A DNA stretch of 64,000 bases from contig DASPLQ010000012.1 in assembly GCA_035627515.1 (NCBI GenBank), positions 1,098,331-1,162,330 of the forward strand, in the 5' to 3' direction. The stretch comes from Vitreimonas sp. (lineage in GTDB: Bacteria; Patescibacteriota; Microgenomatia; UBA1400; PJMF01). Shown here piece after piece: positions 2,427-31,082 of the stretch (position 1 is its first letter; each line of letters opens with the position of its first letter). A program made the position numbers and the translations under genes. The notes under the pieces were generated by a model, which saw only the letters and a program-made list of their open reading frames with translations, was not told where the DNA came from and ran no database searches.

Positions 2427-2432
2427 GAAATT

Positions 2433-3929: not shown

Positions 3930-3932
3930 GCT

Positions 3933-4793: not shown

Positions 4794-4938
4794 CATCACT
4801 TTAATTAACTAAAGTGTATCAAAAATGATGTACTTCTTTGTATTCTAAATTGCTTTCACAATTGTCAAAATGATGATGCACTAAATTAGATGTTTGTTGT
4901 TCTTTGTTATGAAATGACATAGGCAATTACCAAATAAT

Positions 4939-5676: not shown

Positions 5677-5694
5677 TACTAATAAGGAGGCAAA

Positions 5695-9318: not shown

Positions 9319-9320
9319 AT

Positions 9321-10325: not shown

Positions 10326-10327
10326 TC

Positions 10328-11077: not shown

Positions 11078-12134
11078 AACTGCCCTACTCCCTTCTTCTG
11101 GCGATCCCTTCTTATTAACCTTCTGGTTTGGTCAGTTCCTAAAGGTGTGGCAAAACGAGGTAGATGAGTTGATTATTCATTTAAATGGGTATGCTGAGGC
11201 AGAGGTGGTCGAGTATGTTCGGCAGATGGTATTGTTGAGCCCCAAGGCAAAGTTTATACACACACCCTCAACAGTTACTCATGGAAATTCGATTGATCTT
11301 ATGTTGGATGAGGTAAAAACGGATTTAGTGGTTTTGCTTGAAGAAGATGCCCCAATATTTAAACCTGGAACCATTGACTACTGCTTTAAATACATAGAAG
11401 AACAAGGCTATGAAGTAGTGGGGTCTAAGCGAGGCAGCTGTGCGTTAGAGATCTTAGAGCGGGCAAAAGAAGTGTGGGGCTTGGACTACTCTGGTTATGG
11501 TGATCAGGGGTGCAATTTTTGGCCTTGTTTTCTCTTCACTAAAACCCAAATTTTAAAAGATACTGACAGGAATTTTGACAGTAAACAATGGAAGGCTGGA
11601 ACCTATATTCCCGAGCTTGATTGGACCACTTCTACCGATGTACACGGCGACACCTTCGTTAATACTTCGCTACAACTTCGTGCGAAGAAATGCCGAATAA
11701 AAGAAATCCCACAATATCACTGTTATACCGACGACATGCCAGACTATGAAAAGAAAATGGGGATTTATGATGGTTATGCCCCATGGGTTCACATTGGTTC
11801 TCTCTCAAGTTGTTTTAATGGAGCTTTGGTTGATGATACCAATAGGGCACTGGGTAGAAGATTGGTTGAAGCACCCAAATCGGACTACCCTCTCCAGGCA
11901 AATACGGTAGGGGAGAAGCAAGAGTGGGAAAGAAGATTGGTTTGGCTTTCTATTGCATATTCGGGTTTTCACTCAAACGATTATTTAAGCAAAGAAACCA
12001 AAGACATTCTCAAAGTATTTTCAATTGAGTACGGAAATGCGCTAGAAAAAGCAGTCAGATATTTAGGACTAAATAAGGAGAGGATGTTCCAAAGAATGAA
12101 GATTTACTTGGAATTACTTAATAAATATGTTTGA
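11070..12134 (+). CDS. hypothetical protein in glycosylation cassette (possible glycosyltransferase)
   Basis: ~355 aa, 8-nt overlaps with both neighbours; no motif recognised by eye; ORF-track start 11004 replaced by in-frame ATG 11070. Confidence 0.35.
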   Translation: MSRTALLPSSGDPFLLTFWFGQFLKVWQNEVDELIIHLNGYAEAEVVEYVRQMVLLSPKAKFIHTPSTVTHGNSIDLMLDEVKTDLVVLLEEDAPIFKPGTIDYCFKYIEEQGYEVVGSKRGSCALEILERAKEVWGLDYSGYGDQGCNFWPCFLFTKTQILKDTDRNFDSKQWKAGTYIPELDWTTSTDVHGDTFVNTSLQLRAKKCRIKEIPQYHCYTDDMPDYEKKMGIYDGYAPWVHIGSLSSCFNGALVDDTNRALGRRLVEAPKSDYPLQANTVGEKQEWERRLVWLSIAYSGFHSNDYLSKETKDILKVFSIEYGNALEKAVRYLGLNKERMFQRMKIYLELLNKYV

Positions 12135-12837
12135 CCTCATCGTCACCTGGCCAACCCACTGCGATTATCCTATTTTCAGAAAGTTAATTAGAGAAAATAG
12201 AAAACGATTTGGAGAAGTAATCATCACATTTAGTGATGCAAACAATATCTTTAATAGAGTTGACTTTGTGAAGCAAACAATGAAAAAAGATGATGTTACT
12301 TTCTTGCGAGCTAACTCTAGGGGTGGTGATTGGAGAAATGAAGCAATTCAAGAATCTCTAAAAGAGAGTCAATCCAAGTGGGTTTTGTTTATTGAACAAG
12401 ATTTTATTATCCATAAGCCAGAGCAGTTTTTCTTCAATCTTAATATTGAAATGCCTAAATACGATGTTATTGGTTTTAAAGAAGGAGAGAGATTGCACCC
12501 TGGTTTCTTGTTAATTAGAAGAGAGTGCTTAAATCAGACCTGTCTAGATTTCGGGATAGTACCCAACAAACTTGATCATTTTGGTCTGATAACAAAAGAC
12601 ATTACTCGCCTTGGATTTAAGGTTGGGCTACTTGACGACTTAGGCCTTGAGAGAAAGAAGCACTATTATCACATGAATGGTTTGAGTCACAACCTAACTC
12701 TTATGCAGCAAGGCGAAAAAGTTACCTATCAGCCGGATATGTTCTTAAGTTACCTAAGAAGTTGTGCTCAAGCTGGCATCGAGCTTCCCAGCGACTTCTT
12801 TTTGTACTATCACCGTATGAAAGAAACAAATGCTTAA
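12127..12837 (+). CDS. hypothetical protein in glycosylation cassette (possible GT-A-like)
   Basis: 236 aa; VLFIEQDFII acidic motif reminiscent of a GT-A DxD region; overlapping start/stop coupling. Confidence 0.3.
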   Translation: MFDLIVTWPTHCDYPIFRKLIRENRKRFGEVIITFSDANNIFNRVDFVKQTMKKDDVTFLRANSRGGDWRNEAIQESLKESQSKWVLFIEQDFIIHKPEQFFFNLNIEMPKYDVIGFKEGERLHPGFLLIRRECLNQTCLDFGIVPNKLDHFGLITKDITRLGFKVGLLDDLGLERKKHYYHMNGLSHNLTLMQQGEKVTYQPDMFLSYLRSCAQAGIELPSDFFLYYHRMKETNA

Positions 12838-13924
12838 AGTTTTTGCCGACTTTCATCACGCATCCCTATTACACTCGCTGATCATGGTTTTTGAGGGTAG
12901 ATTTGGTGGTGAGTTATATCGACCAATAGGGATTGAGTGGGCTGAAAAAGGATTTTGGAAAGTATTCGACCACCCTGCTACTCAACAACAGTATTTGGCA
13001 ATCGGCGGCGCGACACCAGATGGAACTAAACCTCTCAACGAAGTAGAAAGCTCAGAGGCCTGGTCAAATAGGATCCCATCTGATCATGTGTACCATTGCA
13101 AAGATATTGATAGTGGTTTTACCAATAAAGCGATCACATTTGATGGCTTTATGTCAATGCCATTTGACTTTGTGATTGCTTCACTACCTCAACACATTGA
13201 ACCATTTCGTAAGCTTTGTGACCTACATCCTAGCAAACCAAAGCTTATTTATCAAATTGGAAATCAATGGAATATTGAACCCCACTTCGCTCACATGATT
13301 AATGGAGTAATGGCATCTGCTCAAGTTGTTCACAATTACCCCGTAAGAACTATTCAATACCATCAAGAGTTTGACCTCAAAACCTTTTACCCACATAAAT
13401 TTGAGGGCACTAATGAGATACCCAAGGAAAAAACAGCTTACAGTTTCATTAACGTACATCAAGACATGCCAGACTACAGTCTCTTTCTCTCCTTAGAGGC
13501 AAGTAGACCAGACTGGAATTTTAAAACTTATGGGGGTCAATGCAGAGACGGATCGATGGATGGCAGTGAGCAGCTGGCTAACAAAATGAGAGAGGCGATG
13601 TTCATTTGGCACGTTAAAGCAGGTGGAGATGGGTATGGTCATGTTTTATACAATGCAGCTGCTATAGGCAGGCCTGTTATTGTTAAAAAATCATACTACT
13701 CTGGCAAACTAGGTGAAGAACTATTAATTGATGGTAAAACGTGCATTGATGTTGACGGTCTAAATTTAGACCAGATTTGGTCTAAGCTAGACCATTATAG
13801 TCAACCTGAGCAGTACATAGCTATGAATGAAAATGTGATTAGTAACTTTAAAGAGAAAGTAAATTTTGATTCAGACGCCCTGAAAATCAAGTCATTTTTA
13901 GATAATTTGTTAGAAATCTATTAA
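12830..13924 (+). CDS. hypothetical protein, possible GT-B-like glycosyltransferase
   Basis: 364 aa; C-terminal GGDGYGHVLYNAAAIGRPVIV resembles a GT-B sugar-nucleotide binding segment. Confidence 0.3.
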   Translation: MLKVFADFHHASLLHSLIMVFEGRFGGELYRPIGIEWAEKGFWKVFDHPATQQQYLAIGGATPDGTKPLNEVESSEAWSNRIPSDHVYHCKDIDSGFTNKAITFDGFMSMPFDFVIASLPQHIEPFRKLCDLHPSKPKLIYQIGNQWNIEPHFAHMINGVMASAQVVHNYPVRTIQYHQEFDLKTFYPHKFEGTNEIPKEKTAYSFINVHQDMPDYSLFLSLEASRPDWNFKTYGGQCRDGSMDGSEQLANKMREAMFIWHVKAGGDGYGHVLYNAAAIGRPVIVKKSYYSGKLGEELLIDGKTCIDVDGLNLDQIWSKLDHYSQPEQYIAMNENVISNFKEKVNFDSDALKIKSFLDNLLEIY

Positions 13925-14925: not shown

Positions 14926-15393
14926 ATGGCAACACAATTCGGTGATAAAAAACTCAAACTTAAATATCTTTTCACAGCATTTTTTGAAGATGGTCATGTC
15001 ATAAGTCAAACTCCGGAAGATGTTTCAACAATAGATCCAGAAAAAAGATCCGCTTTTTTTGATGTACTTGAGTATGAAAAAAAATCAAAATTGATGGCAT
15101 TTAACTTACTTAATCCTGTGCTTAAAGAATATATTGAAGTGAATTTGAATACAGGCGAATTTGATGTTCACGGCATAAAAATCAATATTGCAGATCAAAA
15201 CTTCGAACCCACCGAACCATTAAGACTTGTTTACTTTCGAGAAACTCGTATCGAAAGCGATGTAAAGATGATAGCTGGTCAAAAAGATGATTTATTGGCT
15301 CAAAGGTTTTACGTTAATAATTACTTCATTGGATGGCAAACCACCGTAGATGGTAAGAATGTTCAACGGACTATTGCGTTAGGCGGTACATGA
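14926..15393 (+). CDS. hypothetical phage structural protein
   Basis: 155 aa; overlaps the start of the next gene (ATGA). Confidence 0.35.
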   Translation: MATQFGDKKLKLKYLFTAFFEDGHVISQTPEDVSTIDPEKRSAFFDVLEYEKKSKLMAFNLLNPVLKEYIEVNLNTGEFDVHGIKINIADQNFEPTEPLRLVYFRETRIESDVKMIAGQKDDLLAQRFYVNNYFIGWQTTVDGKNVQRTIALGGT

Positions 15394-17855
15394 AGCAAGT
15401 AGCCACTGGAAGAAACGGGAATAACCTTGTAAATAACGCCACACGTTATAACCCTCTATTTTTTCCCGACCTTCAGTCAGGTTATTCAGCAACCGCTACA
15501 GACTTTGAACAGATCATCCCTTCTACTGGAAAACTTAGAAATCTTAAAGTAAAGATAGATGCAGTTGCTGGCGCAGCTAAAAGCTACACATTCACTGTTA
15601 TGGTTAATGGCGTTGCTTCTTCATTGGCGGTAACCATTTCTGGAGCAACCGACACAAGGGGGTTAGACACTGACGAAATTTCTGTCAGTGCCGGCGATCG
15701 TGTCAACCTTCGAACTACTGCTTCTGGTACCCCTACAGCCACCCCTTCCTCGTGGTCGGTTGAGTATGAATCTGACACCGCACAAAGATTTATAGTTATG
15801 GGTGCATCAGGGGGAAACGTAGATGCGGCTGGCACAAGATATAATGCTCTTTTTCCCCGTCAAAACATTTGGCAGTCTGCCTCCACGACTTATCTTGTAA
15901 GATCTGTAGCCCCTATTGAGGCTACTATTAAATCTTTCTATGTCAATTTAAATGGATCTCCAGGGGCGGGAAAGAGCTATGCAATTTCTATTATGAAGAA
16001 CAACTCGGAAGAGGCTTCTTCAATTGTAACAATTGCCGATGCTGCTACATCTGGAAATGTCACTGGTTTGAGCATCAACGTGGCTCGGGGAGACTATTTC
16101 ACAATAAAGGTAACACCTACGGGCACTCCAACTGCTCGTCAAGTAAGATGGGGTGTTGAATTTCAGCCCGACACTGATGGTGAAAGTTTTATTTCCTCTT
16201 CTACAGATCACTCTTTTGGCACCGACCACTATGCGGGTATGGGAAGTGTTCCCAATGATGGTGGCACTGAAAGTCAAGTCAAGGGTATCGTAGGACCAAC
16301 AGCATACGTAATCAAAGATTTGTACGTTAAATTGTTACTGGCCCCAGGTGCGAGTAAGAGCACCGACGTTTATTTTCGCGTTAATGGATCAAGCACTGCT
16401 CTGTCAGCTTCCATAAGTGGCACCAACACCGTGGGTGAAGACACTACCGACGAAATTACGCCTGCAGAAAACGATGAAATAAACTTTTTCATTGACAACG
16501 TGAATACACCAGCCCACTCGGGTGAGTTAATGAGTGTAATTCAATATATTGCTCCTGGCGGAGGTGATGTCACAACACCTCAAACAATTACAGGTAAAGC
16601 TAGGATAGAGAAAGCGGTAAGTCAAACCGTGACAGGTAAGGCGAGAATTCAAAAAGCAGTAACTCAGACTATTGCCGGTCTAGCCAGAATCACTACCTCG
16701 GTTGCTAGAACTATTAATGGTGTGGCAAACATCAACAATAATACTTTACAAACCATCACTGGCAAGGCGAGGGTTCAGAAGGCAGTAACCCAGACAATTC
16801 AGGGCATAGCCCGCATCACAGTTTCCACCCTCCAAACTATTCAAGGTAAAGCTTCAATTCTTAAATCAACCACCCAGAATGTCCAAGGGGTCGCTCGAAT
16901 TGAAAAAAATGTTACACAGATTGTCCAAGGTGTAAGTCGTATTCAAAAAGCAGTGACGCAAACAATCCAGGGTGTAGCGCGAATCACCGCGTCAGCCTCT
17001 CAAGTCATTCAGGGAAAAGCACGAATCACGGCAAGTACAAGTCAAACGATGCAAGGCAAAGCCAGTATCTTAAAGTCAGTTTCTCGCACTATTGATGGTG
17101 TTGCTTCGATCGTAGCTGGTGCTACTCGTGATATTACAGGTGTGGCCCGCATCACTGCTTCAACTCTTCGCACGGTTACTGGTAAAGCATCGATTCTCAA
17201 AGCTGTCACACAAACGATTCAAGGAACTGCCCGGATTCAAAAGTCAGTTACTCAAACAGTACAGGGCGTTGCCCGGATTGCCAAAGATGTAACCCAAACA
17301 ATTACGGGCAAATCAAGAATTGAAAAGAGCGTGGCACAAACCGTGACGGGCTTAGCTCGAATTGAGAAAGCCGTCACTCAGCTAATTACGGGCTTAGCTC
17401 GAATCACGGCAAGTACAAGTCAAGCGATTCAGGGTAAGGCCCGTATTGAAAAATCAGTAACCCAAACAATTACAGGAAAATCACGCGTTGAAAAATCCAC
17501 AGCGCAGAACATTGTGGGTGTCTCTCGATTACAAAAGGCTGTCAGTCAATTAATTACGGGCTTAGCCAGAATTCAAACCACTCCTACCCAAACCATTCAG
17601 GGGACTTCCCGAATTGAAAAGTCTCAGAGCCAGATCATAACTGGTGTCTCAAAAATTTCTGCTGTTGTTCAAAGAACAATCACGGGTAAAGCTTCCGTTT
17701 TGTCACCTTACCAAACCCAAACTATCTCTGGCAAAGCATACATTTTGAAAAGACGTTGGAACCTCAAGAGGGTTGTAACATGGTATAGTAAAAATACACC
17801 TATTTGGTCTATCAAAACTAATCAAATCTGGTACAAAAGGAGCACAACAGAATAA
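15390..17855 (+). CDS. large repeat-containing fiber/decoration protein (3 tandem ~115-aa domains + ~26 x 15-aa repeats)
   Basis: 821 aa; three paralogous N-terminal domains each ending in ...TPTGTPTA...W..E..D; C-terminal array of xTQTIxGxARIxKxV 15-mers from about nt 16566 to 17760. Confidence 0.6.
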   Translation: MKQVATGRNGNNLVNNATRYNPLFFPDLQSGYSATATDFEQIIPSTGKLRNLKVKIDAVAGAAKSYTFTVMVNGVASSLAVTISGATDTRGLDTDEISVSAGDRVNLRTTASGTPTATPSSWSVEYESDTAQRFIVMGASGGNVDAAGTRYNALFPRQNIWQSASTTYLVRSVAPIEATIKSFYVNLNGSPGAGKSYAISIMKNNSEEASSIVTIADAATSGNVTGLSINVARGDYFTIKVTPTGTPTARQVRWGVEFQPDTDGESFISSSTDHSFGTDHYAGMGSVPNDGGTESQVKGIVGPTAYVIKDLYVKLLLAPGASKSTDVYFRVNGSSTALSASISGTNTVGEDTTDEITPAENDEINFFIDNVNTPAHSGELMSVIQYIAPGGGDVTTPQTITGKARIEKAVSQTVTGKARIQKAVTQTIAGLARITTSVARTINGVANINNNTLQTITGKARVQKAVTQTIQGIARITVSTLQTIQGKASILKSTTQNVQGVARIEKNVTQIVQGVSRIQKAVTQTIQGVARITASASQVIQGKARITASTSQTMQGKASILKSVSRTIDGVASIVAGATRDITGVARITASTLRTVTGKASILKAVTQTIQGTARIQKSVTQTVQGVARIAKDVTQTITGKSRIEKSVAQTVTGLARIEKAVTQLITGLARITASTSQAIQGKARIEKSVTQTITGKSRVEKSTAQNIVGVSRLQKAVSQLITGLARIQTTPTQTIQGTSRIEKSQSQIITGVSKISAVVQRTITGKASVLSPYQTQTISGKAYILKRRWNLKRVVTWYSKNTPIWSIKTNQIWYKRSTTE

Positions 17856-19213: not shown

Positions 19214-19593
19214 GTAGTTTGATAACTGATATTGTCGATTATTTAGATGACCAGGGCATTGGAACCACAGGTACTAATTTATTTGAAGGCTATATTCCTG
19301 ACGCACCAGATACTTGTATTGCTGTGCTGAATACCGGTGGAACCAGGCCTGATCCAGACATTCCTACTAAGTCACCAACCTTTCAGGTATTTATTAGAGC
19401 AACAAGTTTCGCAGCGGGACAATCTAGATTAGACCAGGTGCGAGAAGCTCTTCATAGACAGTCAAATATAGAGTTTGTTACTGACGAAACCTATGTTTAC
19501 TACGTTTTAGCACTTGCAGAGGGCGGTCATGTGGGTAGAGATGAAAATGGAAGAGATTTATTTAGTATTAATTTTAAGGCACTCACCAGATGA
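19210..19593 (+). CDS. tail completion / tail terminator protein (putative)
   Basis: 127 aa; canonical position before the tail tube gene. Confidence 0.3.
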   Translation: MSSLITDIVDYLDDQGIGTTGTNLFEGYIPDAPDTCIAVLNTGGTRPDPDIPTKSPTFQVFIRATSFAAGQSRLDQVREALHRQSNIEFVTDETYVYYVLALAEGGHVGRDENGRDLFSINFKALTR

Positions 19594-19829
19594 TAGAAGA
19601 AGTAAAAAAATTCTATCGTGAGTTACGATGCAAAAATTGCCGGCGCCTACTGGCACAAGAATACCTTCTTGATGGTCGCATCGAAATTAAATGTGGAGCG
19701 TGCAACAGTATTAACTCTTTTGACTTCAAGCATTTGAAGCAATTAAAGAAAAAAAATACTGTGATCGTGCTGGAGAAGAACCCGGGTCTTCCCCAGAATA
19801 CAACTAGTCGGGAGAAAGGAAAAAAATAA
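19590..19829 (+). CDS. zinc-ribbon protein (Com-like CxxC...CxxC)
   Basis: 79 aa, CKNCRRLL...CGACNS four-Cys ribbon followed by a basic tail. Confidence 0.45.
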   Translation: MIEEVKKFYRELRCKNCRRLLAQEYLLDGRIEIKCGACNSINSFDFKHLKQLKKKNTVIVLEKNPGLPQNTTSREKGKK

Positions 19830-19830
19830 T

Positions 19831-20340
19831 ATGGCAGACATTTCTAACGTTAAAGTGGGAGTCTGTAGTGTCACCTTCGGTGGAACTGACTTAGGTCATA
19901 CCAAAGGGGGAGTTGAGGTTACTTACGAACCCGTACACAAAGACGTCATGGTTGATAAATTTGGTGAAACGATTGTTGAGAAATATCTCATTGGTGAGAA
20001 ACTCACTGCTAAAGTTCCTTTGGCTGAGTACACAATCGCTAACCTACGAAGATCCATGCCCCAAGCTACCTTTGCTGGAGCCGCTAACGCCCGGATTACT
20101 CTTGGTGCTAGTGCAGGTCAACGAGCTTCTACTGATGCCCTACAATTGGTGTTACACCCAATTAATGAAGGTACTAGAGCTTTCGACATCGTGTTCCACA
20201 AGGCATATGTCGCTTCTGAGATTGTTCTTAATCATAAAATTGATGAAGAAAAAGTCATCGAAGTGGTATTTGAAGCATTGCTCGACGAATCTAAGTCCGA
20301 TGGTAACTACCTAGGTCTTATTGGTGACTCGACTGCGTAA
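19831..20340 (+). CDS. major tail (tube) protein (putative)
   Basis: 169 aa directly upstream of the chaperone pair and tape measure; size typical of siphovirus tube proteins; no sheath gene present. Confidence 0.5.
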   Translation: MADISNVKVGVCSVTFGGTDLGHTKGGVEVTYEPVHKDVMVDKFGETIVEKYLIGEKLTAKVPLAEYTIANLRRSMPQATFAGAANARITLGASAGQRASTDALQLVLHPINEGTRAFDIVFHKAYVASEIVLNHKIDEEKVIEVVFEALLDESKSDGNYLGLIGDSTA

Positions 20341-20358: not shown

Positions 20359-20763
20359 TTGAGCCCGCCATTATTAACATATATGAAAAAAATCAATTTA
20401 GAGACACTAGAAAAAGAAGTTGAAATTAAAAAATTACCTATTGGCAAGTATGTTGAAGTGCTAAAAGCTTTGAATAATTTACCAAAAGAAATTTCAGGGT
20501 TAGAAAACATAACTCCTGAAGGAATAATTCAAAGACTTCCTAGCATAATTGCAAACAGCTTTGATGAACTGTGTAAAATAGTTTCTATCGCTACAGATAT
20601 GACTGATGATGAAGTTAAATCTATTAGTCTAGATGAACTAACAGAAATTATTATCACGGTAATTGAAGTAAACAAATTTGCTTCCATCGCCGATCGAGTA
20701 AAAAAAGCGTTCAGCCTAGCACCTCAAAAAACATCGACTATGATGAGTGGATCTGCTGGGTGA
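20359..20763 (+). CDS. tail assembly chaperone (G-like)
   Basis: 134 aa, acidic, immediately upstream of the tape measure region; contains slippery A AAA AAA at 20700-20706. Confidence 0.5.
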   Translation: MSPPLLTYMKKINLETLEKEVEIKKLPIGKYVEVLKALNNLPKEISGLENITPEGIIQRLPSIIANSFDELCKIVSIATDMTDDEVKSISLDELTEIIITVIEVNKFASIADRVKKAFSLAPQKTSTMMSGSAG

Positions 20764-21050
20764 TCGATACTCTAGCTTCTGAATACGGGTGGACCAAAAA
20801 AAGCATCTTAGAAGATGTTTATCTTGACGAACTTCCCCTGTTATTCAAAGCTAGAGAGCGGAGAAAGAACGAGGAACATAAAACTCTCCTGGCGATAATT
20901 CAAAATCCACATGTTAAGAATCCTCAGGAATTATGGCAGTTGTTTAATGCATCAAATGATGATAAAAATGAGTCAAAAGAACTAGATAAGCAAGCTTTTG
21001 CTCTATTTAAGGCGACTATCTCAAAAAATAGCAGCATACTTGTAAAATAA
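20760..21050 (+). CDS. tail assembly chaperone frameshift extension (GT-like), -1 frame relative to 20359..20763
   Basis: Frame -1 is open from the slippery site onward; the ORF-track start (GTG 20760) is probably not used. Confidence 0.4.
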   Translation: MIDTLASEYGWTKKSILEDVYLDELPLLFKARERRKNEEHKTLLAIIQNPHVKNPQELWQLFNASNDDKNESKELDKQAFALFKATISKNSSILVK

Positions 21051-21057
21051 GGAATAA

Positions 21058-21537
21058 ATGCAAGTAAACAAAACAACGTTGTTGGTTATCGGAGTATCAG
21101 CTCTGATGCTCAGTGCTTGCACTCCTAAAACCACTTCTTCCTCAGCAACTGAAAGTACTATGCAAACATCACCTAGCCCAACGATTTCAACCCCAGAGCC
21201 CACTCCTACCCCTACCTCAGAGGCTGTCTTATACGAGGAACTTCTTCATAAAGATCATGAAACGTATGAAACCAGATACTTGGTTTATAAAGGATCAGAT
21301 ACATCTGAGGTTTTTATTGAGAAACTATTAAGAGATATTGAGAAAAACAATTGCAAGGTAGCCTGCAATCTCTATTTATATGACAACAGAGAAGCAGCAT
21401 TACTTGAGATAGACGTTCATAACGGTAAAAAAACATTCACTCAACAAGAAAAAGATTATGCAAATGCGCATAGTATCGCTAACATAATCTTTGAAAAGGA
21501 TAGTGTTGAGGGAACCTTCATATACTATAAAAAGTAA
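21058..21537 (+). CDS. lipoprotein (moron) with Pro/Thr-rich linker
   Basis: Signal peptide + lipobox LSAC (MQVNKTTLLVIGVSALMLSAC), PTPTPT linker, ~100-aa C-terminal domain; inserted between chaperones and tape measure. Confidence 0.6.
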   Translation: MQVNKTTLLVIGVSALMLSACTPKTTSSSATESTMQTSPSPTISTPEPTPTPTSEAVLYEELLHKDHETYETRYLVYKGSDTSEVFIEKLLRDIEKNNCKVACNLYLYDNREAALLEIDVHNGKKTFTQQEKDYANAHSIANIIFEKDSVEGTFIYYKK

Positions 21538-21613
21538 GTTTGTTTCCAGACTAACTGTAATTGTTTGCTAAAGTTTGCCAAATTGTCCTTTCTGATCTTA
21601 AAAGTCATACTTT

Positions 21614-23752
21614 ATGAGTATGAGTTTCGATTTAGGTTCCGTAGTTGCACGCGTAAGTGCTGACATCTCAAATTTTAAAGAGGGCATTACTGAAGCAAAA
21701 GGCCACCTTTCTTCTTTTGGTGACAAATTAGGAACAGTTACGTCAAGTATCAGTGATTTTAGTAATAAGGCTGCAGTATTCACAACGGTAGTAGGCGCTG
21801 GTTTTAGCTTGTTAGCAAAAGAGACAATAGCAACAGCTGCTAATTTTGAACAAACGGGAATTGCTTTCAGTACGATGGTAGGTGACGCCGAAAAGGCAAA
21901 GGATCTTTTAAAAGAGATTTCTAAATTTTCCCGGGAAACACCTTTTGAACTTGAACAAGTGCTAGAAGGATCAAAACGTCTTCTTGCATATAACGTGGCT
22001 GCTAAAGATGTTATTCCAACAATGGAGATGTTGGGAAATATTTCTTCAGGCGTTGGAAGAGACAAGTTGCCTCAGCTGATCTTAGCCTTTGGTCAGGTAA
22101 AAGCGGCTACAAAATTGACTGGGGCTGAGTTGAGACAGTTTTCTGAAGCTGGTGTCCCCCTTTTACAAGCACTTGTTGATGAAGCAAATAAGGGTGGGGG
22201 CATGTTAGTTAAGGTTGGAGATTCATCCAAGAAGGCGAAAGTAGATGTGGGCGAACTCAATGACAAATTGGGCATTGCTAAAAAGAGACTTGAAGAGGCT
22301 ACAAAAGCAGGTAAAGCCAAAGAATCTACAATGATGAGTTTGAAGAACACAGTTCAAAATTATGAGCAAAAAATAGGTAGCGCTACAGCGGCCACAGCGG
22401 CAGCCGGAACAGGCTTTAAAAGAGTTAAGGTCTCCGCTGCAGAGATGATTGCAGCAGTTAGTGATGGGCAAGTAAAGTTTGAGGATGTACAAAAAGCTCT
22501 CTCCGGAATGACTGCAAAGGGTGGCAAGTTCTTTGATCTTATGAAAAGGCAAAATTCAACATTGCCAGTTGCCCTATCAAATATTAAACAATCATTTCAA
22601 GAGTTATTTACTACAATACTTGGTGTAAGCGTTACCGGCGAAGTTGCGGATGGATCTATTTTTCAAAAATTAACTGTAGCTGCGTTAGATTTTATGAACT
22701 TCATAGAGTCAGCACGGCCTCAGATCACAGCCATGGTGCAAGGCGCCATTGCAGAAGCAGGGGCGTTCTTTGTAGGACTCTACAACACTCTTAAACCTAT
22801 TGGTGAATGGATTACTGCCAACCAACAAACAGTAATTACCTTTTTACAAGGTTTGGGAATTGCGCTGGGAGTTTTGTTGTCTGTTGGAACAATTACATTG
22901 TTACTTGCTGCTCTGCTAAACCCTTTGGTGTTAGTATCCTTAGGTATCGCTGCTTTATATACTGCATGGCAAACGAACTTTTTAGGTATTCAGACAATCA
23001 CTCAACAGGTAGCTGATTTTTTAAAGTTTGTGTTTGAAAACTTCATTCTACCTATCTTTAACTCCTTTATTGCCTGGCTTAATGAAGTATTTCTTCCCGC
23101 ATTTAACGTTGTCTTCAATGGGGTATTGGTTCCCTTATTTAACTCGTTTGTGGGATGGTTCAAGGATAGGTGGACCTTCATCACTTCGATGATTGATGGG
23201 GCTTGGAAAATTATTTCTGGAATCATCTTAATAGCGTGGAACACCATAAGCGGCTTCTTAACAGCAGGTCTACAGCTCTTGGCTGGAAACTGGAAAGGAG
23301 CTTTTGAAACATTGGTAAATATTACTGTTAACAACAGTGAGGCAATTAAGAGAATTTTTAGTGGCATCGTTGAGTTTGTGAAGGGGTGGGGTGGAACATT
23401 CTATAACGAACTAGTAAAACCATTTCAAGATGCCTGGAACAAAATTCAAGAATTAATCGATAAAATAAAAGATAAAGTTGACCTTACCAAGCGTCACTCA
23501 CCTTCCGTCCTCGATATTGTTAAAAACGGTGTCTCCAAAGTAAATAAAGCCTTAGGAGAGCTATCTGTATCTACTAACCTAGAGCCGAGAATAGCTGGAG
23601 CAGCTATCTCTAATAGCGCATCTACAAACATGACTCATGTCACAGTTAGTCTCGATGGGGCAATGATTGGAGATGAATTTAGCGCCATGAGAATGGCTGA
23701 GACTATTGGAAATGGAATTATTAAAAAACTTGGTCAAAACGTGAGGTATTAA
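21614..23752 (+). CDS. tail tape measure protein
   Basis: 712 aa, typical TMP N-terminus (MSFDLGSVVARVSADISNFKEG), coiled-coil middle, hydrophobic C-terminal region; follows the chaperone pair. Confidence 0.8.
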   Translation: MSMSFDLGSVVARVSADISNFKEGITEAKGHLSSFGDKLGTVTSSISDFSNKAAVFTTVVGAGFSLLAKETIATAANFEQTGIAFSTMVGDAEKAKDLLKEISKFSRETPFELEQVLEGSKRLLAYNVAAKDVIPTMEMLGNISSGVGRDKLPQLILAFGQVKAATKLTGAELRQFSEAGVPLLQALVDEANKGGGMLVKVGDSSKKAKVDVGELNDKLGIAKKRLEEATKAGKAKESTMMSLKNTVQNYEQKIGSATAATAAAGTGFKRVKVSAAEMIAAVSDGQVKFEDVQKALSGMTAKGGKFFDLMKRQNSTLPVALSNIKQSFQELFTTILGVSVTGEVADGSIFQKLTVAALDFMNFIESARPQITAMVQGAIAEAGAFFVGLYNTLKPIGEWITANQQTVITFLQGLGIALGVLLSVGTITLLLAALLNPLVLVSLGIAALYTAWQTNFLGIQTITQQVADFLKFVFENFILPIFNSFIAWLNEVFLPAFNVVFNGVLVPLFNSFVGWFKDRWTFITSMIDGAWKIISGIILIAWNTISGFLTAGLQLLAGNWKGAFETLVNITVNNSEAIKRIFSGIVEFVKGWGGTFYNELVKPFQDAWNKIQELIDKIKDKVDLTKRHSPSVLDIVKNGVSKVNKALGELSVSTNLEPRIAGAAISNSASTNMTHVTVSLDGAMIGDEFSAMRMAETIGNGIIKKLGQNVRY

Positions 23753-23754: not shown

Positions 23755-25185
23755 ATGGCATACAGTATAACCATCGCCGGATTAGATCGAACTGCAGATG
23801 TGACCAACATGTCTCCTTCGATTACCGATGATCTTAATGACCAAGCTAATTCGCTACAATTCACTTTGGTTGACTTAAGTGGTCAAGGATTGCCTGAACT
23901 AGAAGATGAGGTTGTTATTACTTTGGCCGATGATAGCAAGATTTTCGGAGGAACTATTATCTCCACTAACTTAAAAAAGAAAGAGATGGGAACGGTTGCA
24001 GCAACAGTTCAGTGCATTGATTACACTCGATTACTCGATTCAAATCTTGTGGCAACTTCTTATCAAAACAAAACTGATCAGTTTATTATTCGTGATATTG
24101 TTTCAAACTATTGTGCCGGCACTGGGATCACCACGGCAAACGTTGGCCTCGGGGTGACAATTGACCAGATCACCTTTAATTACTTACAGCCTTCACAGTG
24201 TTTTAGAAAAATTGCTGAATTAACAGGGAGAAATTGGTACATCGATTATGATAAAGACGTACACTACTTTGCTTCTACTGAAAATGCCGCTCCTTTTGAC
24301 ATAAATAGTTCTAACGCTGAATATTTTGATTTAAATATTAGCAAGGATGCAAGTCAAATTAAAAATCGTGTGTACGTTCGGGGAGGAACTTACTTAAGTG
24401 ATACTTTCACTTTCGAAGAAAAAGGTGATGGAAAAAAAAGATCATTTACCCTGCCTGATAAACCACATGACATCACTTTTGCAATTAATGGAGTAAGTAA
24501 GTCTGTTGGTATTAAAAACGTAAATCTAACTGGTTTTGATGCGTATTTGAACTTTCAGGAAAAATATGTTGAGTTAGACGCCTCAATTACAACACCCACA
24601 GACTCTGACACTCTGACATTTACCTATCAATACGATATTCCAATTTTAGTAGCTGTAGAAGATTTTGATTCCATTGAGACTTATGGTCAAAAAGAATTTG
24701 CTATTTTTGATAAAACAATCAGAACAACTCAAGCGGGGCGCGATAGAGCTCAGGCTGAACTAACAGATTATGCAAATAACGTTATTGAGGGAAATTTCAA
24801 AACTCATACAACAGGATTTGTCTCAGGTCAATTTTTAAACATCAATCTTCCTGAGTATGGGGTAAATGCAGACTACTTAGTCCAAAGGGTTTCTGCAACC
24901 TCAATGGGTGGTGGAATGTATGAATACTCTGTAGACATAGTTAGTGCCAAAACCGTTGGCATTATTAAATTCTTAATCGAGTTGTTAGAAGCAAATAAAA
25001 ACCTAGTCGAGCTTAATGATGATGAAGTCGTGGATGAATTATTTTCAGCCACTGATTCCCTCAACTCAGACTCATTAACCGATGCTTTAACTATCGACTC
25101 CCAGGGAGCTTACTTCACTTGGGCTACTGACTCTTTAGAAATAACACAAACAAGGTTGAGGTGGGATCTCGGTCAATGGGGATAA
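23755..25185 (+). CDS. distal tail / baseplate hub-like protein
   Basis: 476 aa immediately after the TMP (ATAATGG overlap). Confidence 0.45.
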   Translation: MAYSITIAGLDRTADVTNMSPSITDDLNDQANSLQFTLVDLSGQGLPELEDEVVITLADDSKIFGGTIISTNLKKKEMGTVAATVQCIDYTRLLDSNLVATSYQNKTDQFIIRDIVSNYCAGTGITTANVGLGVTIDQITFNYLQPSQCFRKIAELTGRNWYIDYDKDVHYFASTENAAPFDINSSNAEYFDLNISKDASQIKNRVYVRGGTYLSDTFTFEEKGDGKKRSFTLPDKPHDITFAINGVSKSVGIKNVNLTGFDAYLNFQEKYVELDASITTPTDSDTLTFTYQYDIPILVAVEDFDSIETYGQKEFAIFDKTIRTTQAGRDRAQAELTDYANNVIEGNFKTHTTGFVSGQFLNINLPEYGVNADYLVQRVSATSMGGGMYEYSVDIVSAKTVGIIKFLIELLEANKNLVELNDDEVVDELFSATDSLNSDSLTDALTIDSQGAYFTWATDSLEITQTRLRWDLGQWG

Positions 25186-25186
25186 T

Positions 25187-25666
25187 ATGAAAAACATTCA
25201 ATCTGAATCTCAACAATATATTCAAATCAAAGGTGAGCTAGAAATCATTTTGGAAAATGTGGTAACTGGCAAGAAACAAGTTTTTAAACAACATAATGTC
25301 ATTACTTCTTTAGCAAAAACTTCCATAGCCATGGCCCTAAGAGGTGATACGAGTAATAACCGGGGAACAATTACGTACTGTGCAGTAGGCACAAACACAG
25401 TTGCTCCCACAGCCGCAGACACCCAATTGGGAGCTGAGTTATTTAGAAAACAGGTCTCTGTGCGATCCAACTCTGCCAACGAGGCAGTTTTCCAAACTTT
25501 CTTCACCACATCTGAGGCGAATGGAACTTTGCGTGAAGCTGGTTTATTTGGATATGACGCTAGCGCTACTCCAAACTCAGGAACTTTATTTTCTAAGATA
25601 GCTATTAACAGAGTGAAAACCTCAAATGACACACTCACATTTAGGTGGACTATAACAATAGGATAA
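25187..25666 (+). CDS. tail tip/baseplate protein (putative)
   Basis: 159 aa; position. Confidence 0.3.
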   Translation: MKNIQSESQQYIQIKGELEIILENVVTGKKQVFKQHNVITSLAKTSIAMALRGDTSNNRGTITYCAVGTNTVAPTAADTQLGAELFRKQVSVRSNSANEAVFQTFFTTSEANGTLREAGLFGYDASATPNSGTLFSKIAINRVKTSNDTLTFRWTITIG

Positions 25667-25675
25667 GGAGTAATT

Positions 25676-26068
25676 ATGGTGCAATCAAGTGCTGTGGTAG
25701 CTGGAACTAACGCAACAGCAGACCAATACAACAAATTAAGAAATGATGCCCTCTTAGGGCTTAAAAGCGTGTCTGCTATTGCAACTGGCGCTGTTGACCT
25801 TTCCATAACAAACGATTGGGACATTACTCTTGATGATGCTTCTACTACCGTTGTATTTTCTAACGCAACAGTTGGTCAATGGTTTCAGGTGACAGCTATT
25901 CAAGATGCGACTGGAGGGCGGCTAATTACCTGGCCCGCAGGAATCAAATGGCCTGGAGGCGTTGCCCCAACTCTCTCTACGGCAGCTAACGCCATCGATA
26001 CGTTTATTTTCAAATGCACCGCTACCAATGTGTATCGGGGTTATTTTGGTGGATTTAACATGTCCTAA
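25676..26068 (+). CDS. tail tip protein (putative)
   Basis: 130 aa; position. Confidence 0.3.
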   Translation: MVQSSAVVAGTNATADQYNKLRNDALLGLKSVSAIATGAVDLSITNDWDITLDDASTTVVFSNATVGQWFQVTAIQDATGGRLITWPAGIKWPGGVAPTLSTAANAIDTFIFKCTATNVYRGYFGGFNMS

Positions 26069-26091
26069 TTATTATTAAAAAGAAAGACAAG

Positions 26092-26292
26092 ATGACTAAA
26101 TTCAAAACAGTTTTTAAATATTACTTAAATGCATTCGACAATAAGATTGGGGATGTGATTGAGAACAAAGTGCCAATTAGCCTTTTTGCTGATTCGGAAA
26201 AGGAAGCTTTAGATAGAGCCAAGAAGCACGTATCGCGGAAAAAGTATGAGGTGGTAGAAGTTCAAGAAATTGTTGATGATACAAAACGTTAA
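26092..26292 (+). CDS. hypothetical small protein
   Basis: 66 aa, charged. Confidence 0.25.
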   Translation: MTKFKTVFKYYLNAFDNKIGDVIENKVPISLFADSEKEALDRAKKHVSRKKYEVVEVQEIVDDTKR

Positions 26293-26295
26293 ATT

Positions 26296-27570
26296 ATGTT
26301 GACGCCTAATGTAACTATTCCATACGATAGCACCCACGCCTCAATACCAGGCGGTTTTTCTCGTGAGACCACACTTGATGGTAAATATCCCAAAGGTGCG
26401 CCAAATCTCACAAACCCTGGTGGCGCAGGTGGAGCATCAACACATACACATACTTCACCAAGCCACTCACACAGCTTTGCGTCACATACTCACAATATCA
26501 GCACCTCAAGCAACTTTCATCAGTTATTAATTCCAAACAATCAGTCTGATTCTGGCGGCAGTTCAATCGGACGAGGAACCCACTCTCATACGGGAACAAC
26601 ATCAGCTTTGACAAGCGAAACAGTTTCAAGTGAGGCTGTAACATATTCGAGTCAATCAAATGACCCCCCTTATTACGAAGTGATATTCATTAAATCGGTT
26701 GGTTATAACTCATTGCCCAATAATGCTATGTTACTCAACTCAGCAACTAGTAGAAATGGAATGAGTTTTCATACAGCTTCAGCAAATAGATTTCTCAAAG
26801 GAGCCGGCACGGGAGCTAATGCAGGTGGAACTGGAGGAAGTTTAACTAATTCTCATACAGTCAGTCACACGCACTCAACCTCGCACGGTCATACCGGAAC
26901 CACAGGCAACAATAGCGGTGGAACAATTGATCGTCAAAGTGGTTCTAACACTCCTCAGGGTTTATCCACTCATAGTCACGCCTTCTTATTGGATAATGCT
27001 TCAGTAACTTCTGATTCAAATAGTGCCATTACCTCACAATCGGAATCTGTTCAACCAGCTTTTAGAACTTTAAACGCGTTTAAGAACACCTCAGGATCAT
27101 CTATTGGTTTACTTCCAGGAGACATTGCCATGTGGCTTCAAAGCCTAGCTACCATACCAATAGGATGGGTTTTGTGTAATGGCAGCAATGGTACCCCTGA
27201 CATGAGAGATCAATTTTTAAAGATTCCAGCCTCAGCGTCTGCCACTACCACAGGAGGTAGCAATACACATACCCACGCAGCTCAAAGCCACACCCATACT
27301 GTTTCCTCCCATACTCATACAGGATCTGTTTCGCCGGCTGTGGAAACAACTTCTCGTAAAGCATCGGGTGATCAGGGAGATTGTTGGGGTGGTCCGAATG
27401 CTACAGAAATACCCAACCACACCTTATCAAGTATTTCCAGTACAGCAGGATCACTTCAGGCCGCTAACACTACAGCTAATTCATCTGATAACCAACCTGA
27501 ATACATTACTGTGGCGTTTATTCAATTTCAATATAGCCTGGGAGGTGCACCATTAGCATTCTTGATGTAA
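26296..27570 (+). CDS. tail fiber / receptor-binding protein with multiple His-x-His motifs
   Basis: 424 aa, Ser/Thr/Gly/His-rich; STHTHTSPSHSHSFASHTHN, GTHSHTGT, SHTVSHTHSTSHGHTGT, SNTHTHAAQSHTHTVSSHTHTG. Confidence 0.55.
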   Translation: MLTPNVTIPYDSTHASIPGGFSRETTLDGKYPKGAPNLTNPGGAGGASTHTHTSPSHSHSFASHTHNISTSSNFHQLLIPNNQSDSGGSSIGRGTHSHTGTTSALTSETVSSEAVTYSSQSNDPPYYEVIFIKSVGYNSLPNNAMLLNSATSRNGMSFHTASANRFLKGAGTGANAGGTGGSLTNSHTVSHTHSTSHGHTGTTGNNSGGTIDRQSGSNTPQGLSTHSHAFLLDNASVTSDSNSAITSQSESVQPAFRTLNAFKNTSGSSIGLLPGDIAMWLQSLATIPIGWVLCNGSNGTPDMRDQFLKIPASASATTTGGSNTHTHAAQSHTHTVSSHTHTGSVSPAVETTSRKASGDQGDCWGGPNATEIPNHTLSSISSTAGSLQAANTTANSSDNQPEYITVAFIQFQYSLGGAPLAFLM

Positions 27571-27576: not shown

Positions 27577-27879
27577 ATGGAAATAGCCTGGAACGAAATA
27601 CTAATGACACTTTTGCCGCAACTTGGATTTGCGAGTGTGTTTATGTATCTCTATCACAAGGAAAAAGAAGAAAATAAAGAAAACATCAAGACTAGAGATA
27701 ATCGCATTCAGCAAATGACCGACAACTTAATGGAAGCCTACAGGAAAAATGGTGAGATTTGTGAGTCCCTTCAGAATGCTGTTGATAATAATACTAGAGC
27801 TATTGAACGCAACACAGCATCAGTCCAGAGCTTAAGTGAGAAGATACATACAACAATTACTTCTAGAAATGGGTCGTAG
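27577..27879 (+). CDS. membrane protein of lysis cassette (holin/antiholin or spanin-like)
   Basis: 100 aa; one N-terminal TM (LMTLLPQLGFASVFMYLY) then a charged coiled region. Confidence 0.35.
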   Translation: MEIAWNEILMTLLPQLGFASVFMYLYHKEKEENKENIKTRDNRIQQMTDNLMEAYRKNGEICESLQNAVDNNTRAIERNTASVQSLSEKIHTTITSRNGS

Positions 27880-27930
27880 GGTTGCTTAGAATGGTAGGTA
27901 GAAATATATCGAAGGAAAACAAAACAGATC

Positions 27931-28248
27931 ATGACAGATGATAGCATTCGAATACTAAACATCATTTTCGCTCTTGGGTCACTCCCTCCAACAGCAATTC
28001 TTTTGGTGTCACTCATTGCTGAGTATAAAAAAGCCCGCCTTTTATTAAAACCAACACTCACTGCACTCATCTTCTTGTTTGGAACATTTTTAGCTATTTC
28101 AATTGCTAATACGATAATCTCATTTTTTTTCTTAACTAATCAGGATCAATTAGCTACTCACTATTCATTACTACGTACGTTGTTTTTTGATGCAAGCTGG
28201 TTTACTGTATCATGGTCGTTCTTACTGATTCGCAGTAAATCAAAATAG
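27931..28248 (+). CDS. holin-like membrane protein
   Basis: 105 aa with ~3 predicted TM helices, directly upstream of the peptidase. Confidence 0.4.
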   Translation: MTDDSIRILNIIFALGSLPPTAILLVSLIAEYKKARLLLKPTLTALIFLFGTFLAISIANTIISFFFLTNQDQLATHYSLLRTLFFDASWFTVSWSFLLIRSKSK

Positions 28249-28263
28249 TGCTACTATTATTGT

Positions 28264-29361
28264 ATGCTGCCCACAACTCCTTTTAAAGGTGGTTATCGCC
28301 TTACCCAAACTTTTGGGAAACGTCCTGAGTATTACAGGCAATTTGGCTTTAATGGGCATGAAGGTTTAGATTTAGTTCCCCTCGTAAATAAAGTTCTCGA
28401 AGACAAAGACATTTATGCCGTTGAAGACGGTGAAGTTTTACGTGACGTTGACCCTGGCGAAAGATTCGATGCGTACGGCTATTTGACCGCCGTGTGGAAT
28501 CCATTAACTAAGCGCTGTTGGTGGTATGCCCACAACGCTTTCAACTTAGTGGAGCCAGGGCAAAAAATCAAACGAGGTCAAAAGATTGCTCGAATGGGCG
28601 GAAGCGGAAATGTACAAGGAGATCATCTCCATTTGGGCTTAACGATGAGTGATGAAAACAAGGTGAGATTAAATCAAACTAATGGCTATAAAGGATTTAT
28701 TGATCCTGAGCCAGCTCTAAAAGAGCTAAATCAAGGGGGAGTAGTTATGGCAAATACAATGACTATTGATACTGTTTTGTTCAGCAAACTGGTAGGAAAC
28801 AGTGGGAAATGGGACCTAACGGTCAAATATGTGGAGTTGCCCACCGACCCAGCTCTTACCTCATTTGAGGATGTTCAGAGGGTAGTTGCAGGGTATAAGT
28901 CTCGAGGAACTGATGTTCAGAACCAGATCAATGCAGCCACAGCAGAGCTCTCTAATAGAGTAGAGCAAGTTAGCAGACTTAAAGATCAAGCGCTAAACGA
29001 CCTAAATGTGCAAAAGACCCTACTGGACAACGCAATTTCAGCACGAATAAAAACCGAAGAAAGCCTTGGGGTAGTACAGGGGCAAGTAGTTCTAAAGCAA
29101 AACCAGATTGACGCTATAGCAAAGGAAAAAGGTGAATTAAATACTCAGTTGGTTGTTGCACAAAACTCCGCAAGTGATTGGCAAAAAAAGTATAACGACC
29201 TACTAACTACCCATGCGGTGGCTCATATCACCCTAGCTGATGCCATATTAATCTTGGCAAAATCCTTCTTTGGTTGGGCAAAGAATGTCCAATTGAAAAA
29301 AACCGAAGACTTAATAGATGTAGAAGAACTTATGGCAAAAGTTAACCCAGCAATTCAATAA
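28264..29361 (+). CDS. M23-family metallopeptidase (putative endolysin) with C-terminal coiled-coil region
   Basis: GFNGHEGLDL (HxxxD) and GDHLHLG (HxH) motifs in the N-terminal 150 aa; C-terminal ~170 aa Gln/Leu-rich coiled-coil. Confidence 0.7.
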   Translation: MLPTTPFKGGYRLTQTFGKRPEYYRQFGFNGHEGLDLVPLVNKVLEDKDIYAVEDGEVLRDVDPGERFDAYGYLTAVWNPLTKRCWWYAHNAFNLVEPGQKIKRGQKIARMGGSGNVQGDHLHLGLTMSDENKVRLNQTNGYKGFIDPEPALKELNQGGVVMANTMTIDTVLFSKLVGNSGKWDLTVKYVELPTDPALTSFEDVQRVVAGYKSRGTDVQNQINAATAELSNRVEQVSRLKDQALNDLNVQKTLLDNAISARIKTEESLGVVQGQVVLKQNQIDAIAKEKGELNTQLVVAQNSASDWQKKYNDLLTTHAVAHITLADAILILAKSFFGWAKNVQLKKTEDLIDVEELMAKVNPAIQ

Positions 29362-29891: not shown

Positions 29892-30071
29892 ATGAAAATA
29901 CTTCCTCCCCAAACCATGGTTAAATTACAGCACTTAGTGGGTTATTTCCCGTGTGCCTGGTGCATAAGTGAAAGATACAGGAAAATCAGCAATAAACTTA
30001 AAATGAGCCATGGAATCTGTGAAAAATGCGCACACGAACATTTCTATTCCTTACTTGATACAAGCCCATAG
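29892..30071 (+). CDS. small zinc-ribbon protein (59 aa; CAWC...CEKC), not in ORF track
   Basis: ATG 29892 to TAG 30069-30071; two CxxC pairs; tail-to-tail overlap (21 nt) with the integrase 3' end. Confidence 0.3.
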   Translation: MKILPPQTMVKLQHLVGYFPCAWCISERYRKISNKLKMSHGICEKCAHEHFYSLLDTSP

Positions 30072-31082
30072 TCCCGCTAATTGTTGCTCGAGAACAACCA
30101 TATCAAATCGCTTATCCTGCTCTAACTTAAAGCTCCTCACGGCATCAATTGCCTGTTTCAACAACTCGGGGGCAGGTATGTTATTTCGAATCATTGGATG
30201 CATGAAAGTAGCTTTTCTAAGTGTTTCATCTGCTAAATGAGCATAGTTATTAAAGGTTGTTTGAATGTCTTTATGACCAAGAAGGTCGGCAACTTTGGTA
30301 ATTTCCACCCCTGAAGAGAGCAGCTGAGTCGCAAAGGAATGTCTAAAAAGGTGTGGATGGACACGTTTAGTGACTTTTGCATCAACTGCCCTTCTTTTCA
30401 GATCTGGAATAAATTCTTGCTCACGTATCTTGGTATTCATCATGCTTGTGAAAATAAGGTCGGTTCGTTCCTTTTTCTCTGAATCAATAATGTATTGAAG
30501 TTCTGAAACCAAAGGCTCTGATATGAAAGCAAGTCTATATTCTGTGTTTTTAGTTTTAATGAATCTGGCTTTACCATTTGAAATGTCAAGGTTTGCAAGT
30601 GTTAAGCTGGCGCACTCATCATATCGGCAGCCTGTTGTGGCTAAAAAGCGGATCATTGCTTTATAAACAGTGTTCAGTCTGCTGCAATCTCTACCTCTAA
30701 AATTACCATAACTCATATCGATAGAGAGTATCGCCTCAATTTCATTAACAGAAAGTACATCAATTACTGGTTTAATTTTGGGAAAAGACTTAATACCTTT
30801 AAGAAAATCTTCAGTTTCTGGCTCACGATCCCTTAGGTAAGCTAGAAGTTGCCGAAGCATAAAAATGTATGTATTAATTGTGTTAGTGTGGAGGCCTTTA
30901 TTTTTCAGTTCAAAGAGAAACCGCTCAATATGATTGACAGTGATGTTTGTGACAAGGTTTTCGGGTTTTTCACACCACTCGATGAATATACCAAGACGAC
31001 TCAACACGTGCCTGATGGAGCTATCCGAAATACCCTGCTTTATCGTGATAAATTGGATAAAATCAGCAGAGTTAATTTTCAC
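30051..31082 (-). CDS. int: tyrosine-type site-specific integrase
   Basis: Catalytic region HPHLFRHSFATQLLSSGVEITKVADLLGHKDIQTTFNNYAHL (R..H..R..Y); N-terminal SAM-like domain; last phage gene before the host genes. Confidence 0.85.
   Translation of the reverse strand: MKINSADFIQFITIKQGISDSSIRHVLSRLGIFIEWCEKPENLVTNITVNHIERFLFELKNKGLHTNTINTYIFMLRQLLAYLRDREPETEDFLKGIKSFPKIKPVIDVLSVNEIEAILSIDMSYGNFRGRDCSRLNTVYKAMIRFLATTGCRYDECASLTLANLDISNGKARFIKTKNTEYRLAFISEPLVSELQYIIDSEKKERTDLIFTSMMNTKIREQEFIPDLKRRAVDAKVTKRVHPHLFRHSFATQLLSSGVEITKVADLLGHKDIQTTFNNYAHLADETLRKATFMHPMIRNNIPAPELLKQAIDAVRSFKLEQDKRFDMVVLEQQLAGLWACIK

Follow-up and report, generated by a model that had tools for sequence, protein, structure and literature searches.

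The closest described counterpart of the locus analysed here is gene 15 of phage HK97, the founding "moron". In the HK97 record, the GT frameshift product (7472-8145) is followed by Gp15, annotated as "moron product" (8203-8391), a putative terminator and the tape measure gene (8435-11704). The prophage expresses Gp15, which becomes inserted into the inner membrane and prevents the entry of a genome; this effect depends on the tail region of the infecting phage (PMC3594210). Its homologues (YebO) are mostly non-phage proteins, and gp15 itself has diverged in its C-terminal part (PMC3594210). The textbook features of a moron are defined in the same source, in which lambda Lom and Bor are given as morons serving host phenotypes (PMC3594210).

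A second precedent is Ltp of the Streptococcus thermophilus phage TP-J34. The gene of this lipoprotein is transcribed while the phage resides as a prophage; Ltp blocks DNA injection, and the tape measure protein is reported to be its target. The ltp genes are held in the regulatory/integration neighbourhood of Gram-positive phages. Genes of the sie2009 type are also found in such a neighbourhood. T5 Llp blocks the receptors of both the infected cell and cell debris, so that the progeny phages are not wasted. Llp and the Cor proteins (phi80, N15, HK022) prevent superinfection; they are small phage lipoproteins, or proteins associated with the outer membrane, and their genes are located near tail genes.

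The stretch of DNA analysed in this study (the window) comprises 64,000 nt of contig DASPLQ010000012.1. Its first 31 kb constitute a siphovirus-type prophage, which is followed by bacterial genes (IleRS, FtsW, ParB, GatA/B and tRNAs). The features of this prophage, and of the lipoprotein gene inserted in its tail gene block, are collected in Table 1. The lysis cassette (27577-29361) contains the holin and M23 endolysin genes. Judging from its gene content, the element is temperate, since it encodes a tyrosine integrase.

Table 1. Features of the prophage and of the chaperone/tape-measure junction (window coordinates)
Feature	Position	Strand	Basis or remark
Small and large terminase, portal, major capsid	350-6612		
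Head-tail connector and tail terminator genes	to 19593		
Zn-ribbon ORF and major tail protein	19590-19829 and 19831-20340, respectively		as ordered in the prophage
Tail assembly chaperone, G-like ORF	20359-20763	+	PHROG 1442, E 4.9e-7; start probably ATG 20386, otherwise TTG 20359
Candidate -1 slippery heptamer A_AAA_AAA for G-T fusion	20700-20706	+	read from the sequence
T-like chaperone part (-1 frame)	20760-21050	+	C-terminus collinear with that of relatives
Shine-Dalgarno-like AAGGA	21049-21053	+	sequence; overlaps the T stop codon, 4 nt 5' of the lipoprotein ATG
Predicted signal peptide (residues 1-20) and codon of the lipidated Cys21 (21118-21120); lipobox L18-S19-A20-C21	21058-21120	+	PS51257-type and G+LPPv2 patterns
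Pro/Thr/Ser-rich tether, residues 22-55	21121-21222	+	26/34 residues P/T/S; pLDDT 55-68, without secondary structure
Predicted folded alpha/beta C-terminal domain, residues 56-159	21223-21537 (with stop)	+	AlphaFold2 pLDDT, family alignment, profile
CxxxC of the C-terminal domain: C99, C103	21352-21354, 21364-21366	+	invariant in the family alignment
Spacer of 76 nt made by the insertion	21538-21613	+	terminator/promoter scan: no canonical terminator; weak fold, z = -1.5
Tape measure protein	21614-23752	+	Pfam TMP_3, E 1e-22; start probably ATG 21620
Distal tail proteins	23755-27570, after the tape measure gene		
Two small membrane proteins, then M23 endolysin	endolysin 28264-29361		
Tyrosine integrase	30051-31082	-	

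The two chaperone ORFs and the heptamer form what is, by sequence, a classical G/GT arrangement, with the -1 frame open from 20667 to 21050, i.e. across the heptamer. Homologues of the G-like chaperone were found at the equivalent position in L001, L002, L009, L012 and L045-L050. The tape measure protein probably begins at ATG 21620 (MSFDLG...) rather than at 21614; its homologues, which are 54-56% identical and come from phage contigs of 30-40 kb, begin with MAFDLG.... The homologues of the major tail protein in IMG/VR display 68-80% identity.

The junction was compared in 12 related phages and prophages (the P0003 contig, L001, L002, L003, L009, L012 and L045-L050). In each of them the stop codon of T is separated from the tape measure ATG by 3-24 nt, as against 563 nt in the window. 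The T C-termini of the relatives, NPRIIVK(S), and the N-termini of their tape measure proteins are collinear with the corresponding termini in the window (NSSILVK and MSFDLG...). Since T and the tape measure gene lie only 3-24 nt apart in all these relatives, the lipoprotein gene, which is about 480 nt long, is a clean insertion of approx. 563 extra bases (21051-21613) that left both neighbouring genes intact. Direct repeats bordering the inserted DNA were not found. The gene is placed 7 nt 3' of the stop codon of the T ORF and 76 nt 5' of the tape measure gene.

An earlier, sequence-only reading of this region had described the gene as a moron inserted between the tail chaperones and the tape measure gene, in an otherwise invariant gene order. 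The insertion itself was borne out by the comparison with the relatives, all of which lack the gene and retain the adjacency. The term moron fits in part. Additional DNA relative to collinear relatives, i.e. the first feature of a moron in the sense of Juhala and Hendrix, is present, but neither an own promoter and terminator nor a deviant base composition could be identified for this gene. The GC content of the gene is 0.375 (GC3 0.33), as compared with 0.36-0.41 for its neighbours, and the cosine of its codon usage with that of the phage genes (0.88) falls inside the range of the neighbours; its codon use is ameliorated to the phage. A sigma-70-like promoter was not detected on the + strand between 20529 and 21057 (the promoter type of the host may differ), nor was a + strand terminator between 21538 and 21613. 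The gene seems, therefore, to add "more on" without the remaining textbook features of a moron.

Because no promoter was detected and the late gene in front of it ends only 7 nt away, the lipoprotein gene may be active solely in the late phase of lytic growth. A late lytic function, with transcription of the gene as part of the tail operon and translational coupling to it, is nonetheless decidedly unlikely. In that case the protein could block receptors on the infected cell and debris as Llp does, which would spare the progeny, or it could aid the disruption of the envelope at lysis. The short gap, the tail-like composition and the failure to find an own promoter or terminator speak for such a role, as does the precedent of T5 Llp, a lipoprotein encoded beside tail genes. 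However, the homologues described below mostly adjoin regulators and integrases rather than late genes, the gene is located outside the lysis cassette, and its absence from 12 otherwise similar phages shows that it is dispensable for the lytic cycle. An o-spanin (Rz1-like protein) was considered as well and ruled out, given the distance of 6 kb between the gene and the lysis cassette and the confidently predicted domain of 105 aa.

The slot occupied by the lipoprotein gene is identical to that of HK97 gene 15: in both phages a GT frameshift chaperone is followed by an extra gene and then by the tape measure gene. The two products share further traits, i.e. both are extra relative to related phages, both are membrane-associated (by prediction in the case of the window protein), both have homologues in and outside prophages, and in both the phage copy is diverged. 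They differ in that gp15 is a 62-aa transmembrane peptide, whereas the window gene encodes a 159-aa lipoprotein with a folded domain, and BLASTP produced no alignment between the two proteins at E <= 100. Moreover, HK97 gene 15 is preceded by a gap of 57 nt and followed by an annotated terminator, in contrast to the gap of 7 nt and the lack of a detectable terminator in the window.

The same junction has accepted other genes. In the Cluster O mycobacteriophages (Corndog and its relatives) an HNH gene separates the tail assembly chaperone from tmp (PMC4351075). This resembles the window in that the same junction accepts an insertion in unrelated siphoviruses, but the cargo is a homing-type nuclease and not an envelope protein. 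An independent insertion of approx. 225 nt was identified at the T/tape-measure junction of L014 (5609-5832, as compared with 3360-3380 in L013). It carries an ORF of 59-68 aa with a C-terminal transmembrane helix (GMGLVFAISLCAIIWFI), i.e. a small membrane protein, which is absent from L013, a near-identical prophage labelled as Patescibacteria. Since HK97 gene 15, the Cluster O HNH gene and the L014 ORF all occupy this junction, the chaperone-tape measure order is conserved yet not invariant, contrary to what the sequence-only reading had assumed, and membrane proteins recur as its cargo. In another IMG/VR relative (L047, 4606-5226) a 206-aa ORF separates the major tail gene from the chaperone gene; this insertion, at a junction different from that of the window, shows by sequence comparison that the region is mosaic.

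The ORF of the inserted gene (21058-21537, + strand) starts with ATG, includes its stop codon within these limits and encodes a protein of 159 aa. Its N-terminus, MQVNKTTLLVIGVSALMLSAC, matches the PROSITE PS51257-type rule and the Gram-positive lipoprotein pattern G+LPPv2, with K5 in the n-region, a hydrophobic stretch at residues 6-20 and the L-S-A-C lipobox ending in Cys21. This agrees with the definition of a type II signal peptide (a positive n-region, a hydrophobic h-region, the lipobox [LVI][ASTVI][GAS]C and the Cys at approx. 15-35). The PS51257-type rule was matched by only 2 of the 155 window ORFs of at least 60 aa, the second match resembling a transmembrane segment. By these sequence rules the product is a lipoprotein. 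The tether that follows contains 7 P, 11 T and 8 S among its 34 residues (76%).

For the structure of the C-terminal part we used an AlphaFold2 model based on a 20-sequence alignment of the family, as prediction from the single sequence reached a pLDDT of 40. In this model the pLDDT exceeds 90 for about residues 55-159 (approx. 105 aa), the N-terminus is disordered, and the domain is predicted to adopt the fold beta-beta-alpha-beta-alpha-alpha-beta-beta. Besides the two Cys residues, the domain carries D109, invariant in the family, and H138. Thus, the lipobox lipoprotein with a Pro/Thr-rich tether and a small C-terminal domain proposed in the sequence-only reading was recovered in all its parts.

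Foldseek identified no PDB fold resembling the domain model (best E 0.3). In BFVD it produced one match, the uncharacterised siphovirus protein A0A8S5M948 (E 1.5e-5, TMt 0.81), which confirms, at the level of predicted models, that this fold is present in phages, and gives no indication of its function. The whole protein matched no Pfam family at E <= 0.1 and no PHROG. Searches of 50,697 phage records by blastn and tblastn, for the window lipoprotein and for two family members, were likewise negative. Among approx. 15 billion proteins the lipoprotein is a singleton at 90% identity, and a word-index protein search returned only the protein itself; a look-up of contigs by its exact sequence gave no entry.

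An exhaustive HMMER phmmer scan of 1.84 billion representatives revealed about 20 related proteins (110-210 aa, E 2e-11 to 8e-4), and a profile search together with a metagenome scan extended this set to approx. 25 distant homologues. One candidate, P0123, was discarded, since its match was confined to the low-complexity tether. All family members are predicted to be membrane-anchored at the N-terminus: most by a transmembrane helix preceded by a positively charged end, and 5 of 24 by a lipobox (including LSAC in P0141). The common design consists of this anchor, a variable linker and a domain of approx. 100 aa, in which C-x3-C and an Asp are invariant and a His and a Trp are near-invariant. 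With a profile from which the window protein had been left out, the full protein reached 81 bits and the C-domain alone 59 bits, whereas the highest-scoring of 1000 shuffles reached 10.7 bits. Because the C-domain so clearly outscores the shuffled sequences in a profile made of its homologues only, the ORF is to be regarded, at the sequence level, as a real gene and not a chance ORF, and its product as a member of an undescribed membrane-anchored CxxxC-domain family. No consistent match for the family was found in Pfam, PHROGs or PADLOC, a profile search of PDB sequences yielded only noise, and a scan of IMG/VR with the family alignment found no relatives.

The window protein is the most diverged member of this family (81 bits, as compared with 105-222 bits for the others). 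It retains C99, C103, D109 and H138, but has F127 in place of the conserved Trp, DYANAH in place of the family NYVYVADH, and ends with FIYYKK where other members have the C-terminal YYPYKDWYY motif. By alignment it is therefore a diverged, C-terminally shortened family member. The divergence of a copy in which the Cys-Cys-Asp-His set is kept is consistent with retargeting after capture by the phage; the loss of family-conserved residues could equally mean decay. That the gene is a hitchhiking or decaying insertion without a current function is an improbable explanation. The lowest score in the family, the loss of W127 and of the C-terminal YPYKDW motif, and the singleton status of the protein argue for it. 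On the other hand, the ORF, the Shine-Dalgarno-like site, the signal peptide and the lipobox are all intact, the Cys-Cys-Asp-His core is kept, the fold is predicted confidently up to the last residues, and the codon use is ameliorated to the phage.

Flanking genes could be interpreted for approx. 14 distinct family loci. In half of them (L019, L025, L027, L028, L030/31, L039, L042) the family gene is divergent from a Cro/CI-type HTH_3 gene located directly upstream on the opposite strand. Large serine recombinase genes were identified in six loci, downstream and on the same strand in L019, L027, L028, L039 and L042, and upstream on the opposite strand in L030. Terminase genes adjoin the family gene in L026 and L042, and a gene for a small-terminase-like HTH protein does so in L032/33. 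Besides its HTH_3 and recombinase genes, L027 contains a restriction-modification pair and an excisionase-like HTH_17 gene. In this locus (1019-2700) the HTH_3 gene heads the N4/N6 methyltransferase and MvaI/BcnI restriction pair, and its product, instead of being a phage repressor, may serve as the controller protein of restriction-modification. About one third of the family members (L022 and the P0145 and P0139 contigs) are placed in chromosomal-looking contexts without phage marks. Given the HTH_3, serine recombinase and terminase genes that accompany the family genes, the neighbourhoods indicate that temperate phages and integrative elements are the main carriers of the family, which they have as cargo at their regulatory/integration module.

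These neighbourhoods also bear on the view that the product is a cytoplasmic tail-assembly factor or a virion component whose signal peptide is not used. The only point in its favour is the position of the gene inside the tail gene block. The lipobox conforms to the rules, the homologues are all membrane-anchored and are encoded outside structural modules, and the 12 relatives build their tails without this gene; such a role is highly improbable, and the virion component was rejected for a predicted exported protein that the relatives lack.

Envelope superinfection exclusion appears, by analogy, to be the best-supported function of the window lipoprotein, with a probability of roughly 0.4. This interpretation is suggested because HK97 gp15, which occupies the same slot, and Ltp, which shares the design of anchor, spacer and domain, act in this way, and because the homologues adjoin phage regulators, integrases and terminases and the second insertion at the junction (L014) also encodes a membrane protein. 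One argument against it is that, in sequence and structure searches of Pfam, PHROGs, PADLOC and the PDB, the protein has no homology or fold likeness to characterised exclusion proteins. Others are that no promoter for expression in the prophage was detected, that about one third of the family members are placed in chromosomal-looking contexts, and that the window copy has lost several family-conserved residues. Superinfection exclusion has been demonstrated for gp15, while for the window protein it is inferred.

[quoted passage not shown] In this position it could act at the envelope against an incoming phage and so shield the lysogen or infected cell. The step most likely to be affected would be channel formation or DNA injection, which involves the tail tip and the tape measure protein; masking of a receptor is the alternative.

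Of the described exclusion proteins, gp15 and Ltp are, by analogy, closer precedents than Llp and Cor. Ltp resembles the window protein in having a lipid anchor, a spacer and an extracytoplasmic domain and in being encoded by a temperate siphovirus, and both ltp and the homologues of the window gene are found in lysogeny/integration modules; the window gene itself, in contrast to ltp, lies in the tail operon. The repeat domains of Ltp were not recognised in the window protein, either by Pfam (E <= 0.1) or by comparison with PDB folds (Foldseek best E 0.3). Llp and Cor inactivate FhuA, an outer-membrane receptor of E. coli, whereas the host of the window prophage may lack an outer membrane. Neither homology nor fold likeness to Llp or Cor was detected (no Pfam, PHROG or PDB fold match, and an empty tblastn of 50,697 phage records). 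The parallel with these proteins drawn in the sequence-only reading thus holds only as an analogy. Its proposal of a lysogenic-conversion or exclusion gene is plausible because the element is temperate, and, beyond the window sequence, it gains support from the homologues in regulatory/integration modules of other mobile elements; exclusion itself stays an inference.

A form of lysogenic conversion other than exclusion, exerted by an envelope lipoprotein carried as mobile-element cargo, is also possible, if rather unlikely. The protein might, for example, remodel the surface, serve in adhesion or attachment to a host, contribute to stress tolerance or inhibit a wall hydrolase. The presence of family members in chromosomal contexts without phage genes points in this direction, as do the host phenotypes that lambda Lom, Bor and further morons serve, the absence of matches to exclusion families, and the conserved Cys-Cys-Asp-His and aromatic-rich motifs, which could form a metal or ligand site. 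However, no enzyme or binding fold was recognised, and the nearby phage regulators, integrases and terminases, together with the identity of the HK97 slot, fit a phage-phage conflict better.

It is worth mentioning a broader form of the exclusion hypothesis, which we regard as unlikely: the CxxxC domain would define a new, widespread family of membrane-tethered exclusion proteins of temperate phages and integrative elements in low-GC uncultivated bacteria, possibly Patescibacteria. [quoted passage not shown] The concept of an accessory envelope gene at the chaperone/tape-measure junction has been known since HK97; what is new is a family without a database name or a solved fold, its systematic location, in low-GC uncultivated lineages, next to HTH and integrase genes, and the convergence on the HK97 slot. 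If exclusion were correct, the junction would be a convergent docking site for envelope exclusion genes of very distant phages (in HK97 of E. coli, in the low-GC uncultivated host of the window prophage and in L014), a function would be assigned to a database-unnamed family that occupies the hub of regulation in many small integrative elements, and a concrete candidate for prophage-mediated protection would be available in uncultivated lineages.

The analysis of the window also revealed several features of the prophage outside the junction. The window has a GC content of approx. 40%, its source contig is 1.41 Mb long, many of its host ORFs have no Pfam match, and several relatives of the tape measure protein come from MAGs labelled as Patescibacteria. 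Because of these features, the NCBI label Vitreimonas sp. (an alphaproteobacterium of the Hyphomonadaceae) may be wrong.

Between the major capsid and the tail genes (6690-13924), the prophage carries a cassette of seven or eight genes, encoding three GT1/GT4 glycosyltransferases, a Methyltransf_24 protein, a weakly matching GT2 protein and two unknowns. The location of this sugar-modification block in the structural module recalls the virion-glycosylating mycobacteriophages; glycosyltransferases of Corndog are listed in PMC4351075. Further downstream (15390-17855) an 821-aa protein without a significant Pfam match is encoded, the C-terminal two-thirds of which consist of about 25 tandem repeats of approx. 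14 aa (TQTIxGxARIxKxV); it may be a fibre or decoration protein. A 424-aa protein of the distal tail region (26296-27570), also without a Pfam match, is rich in HTHT, SHSH and SHTH. The small Zn-ribbon (Com-like) ORF (19590-19829), which follows the tail terminator gene and precedes the major tail gene, is kept at the equivalent place in L001, L002, L009 and L012.
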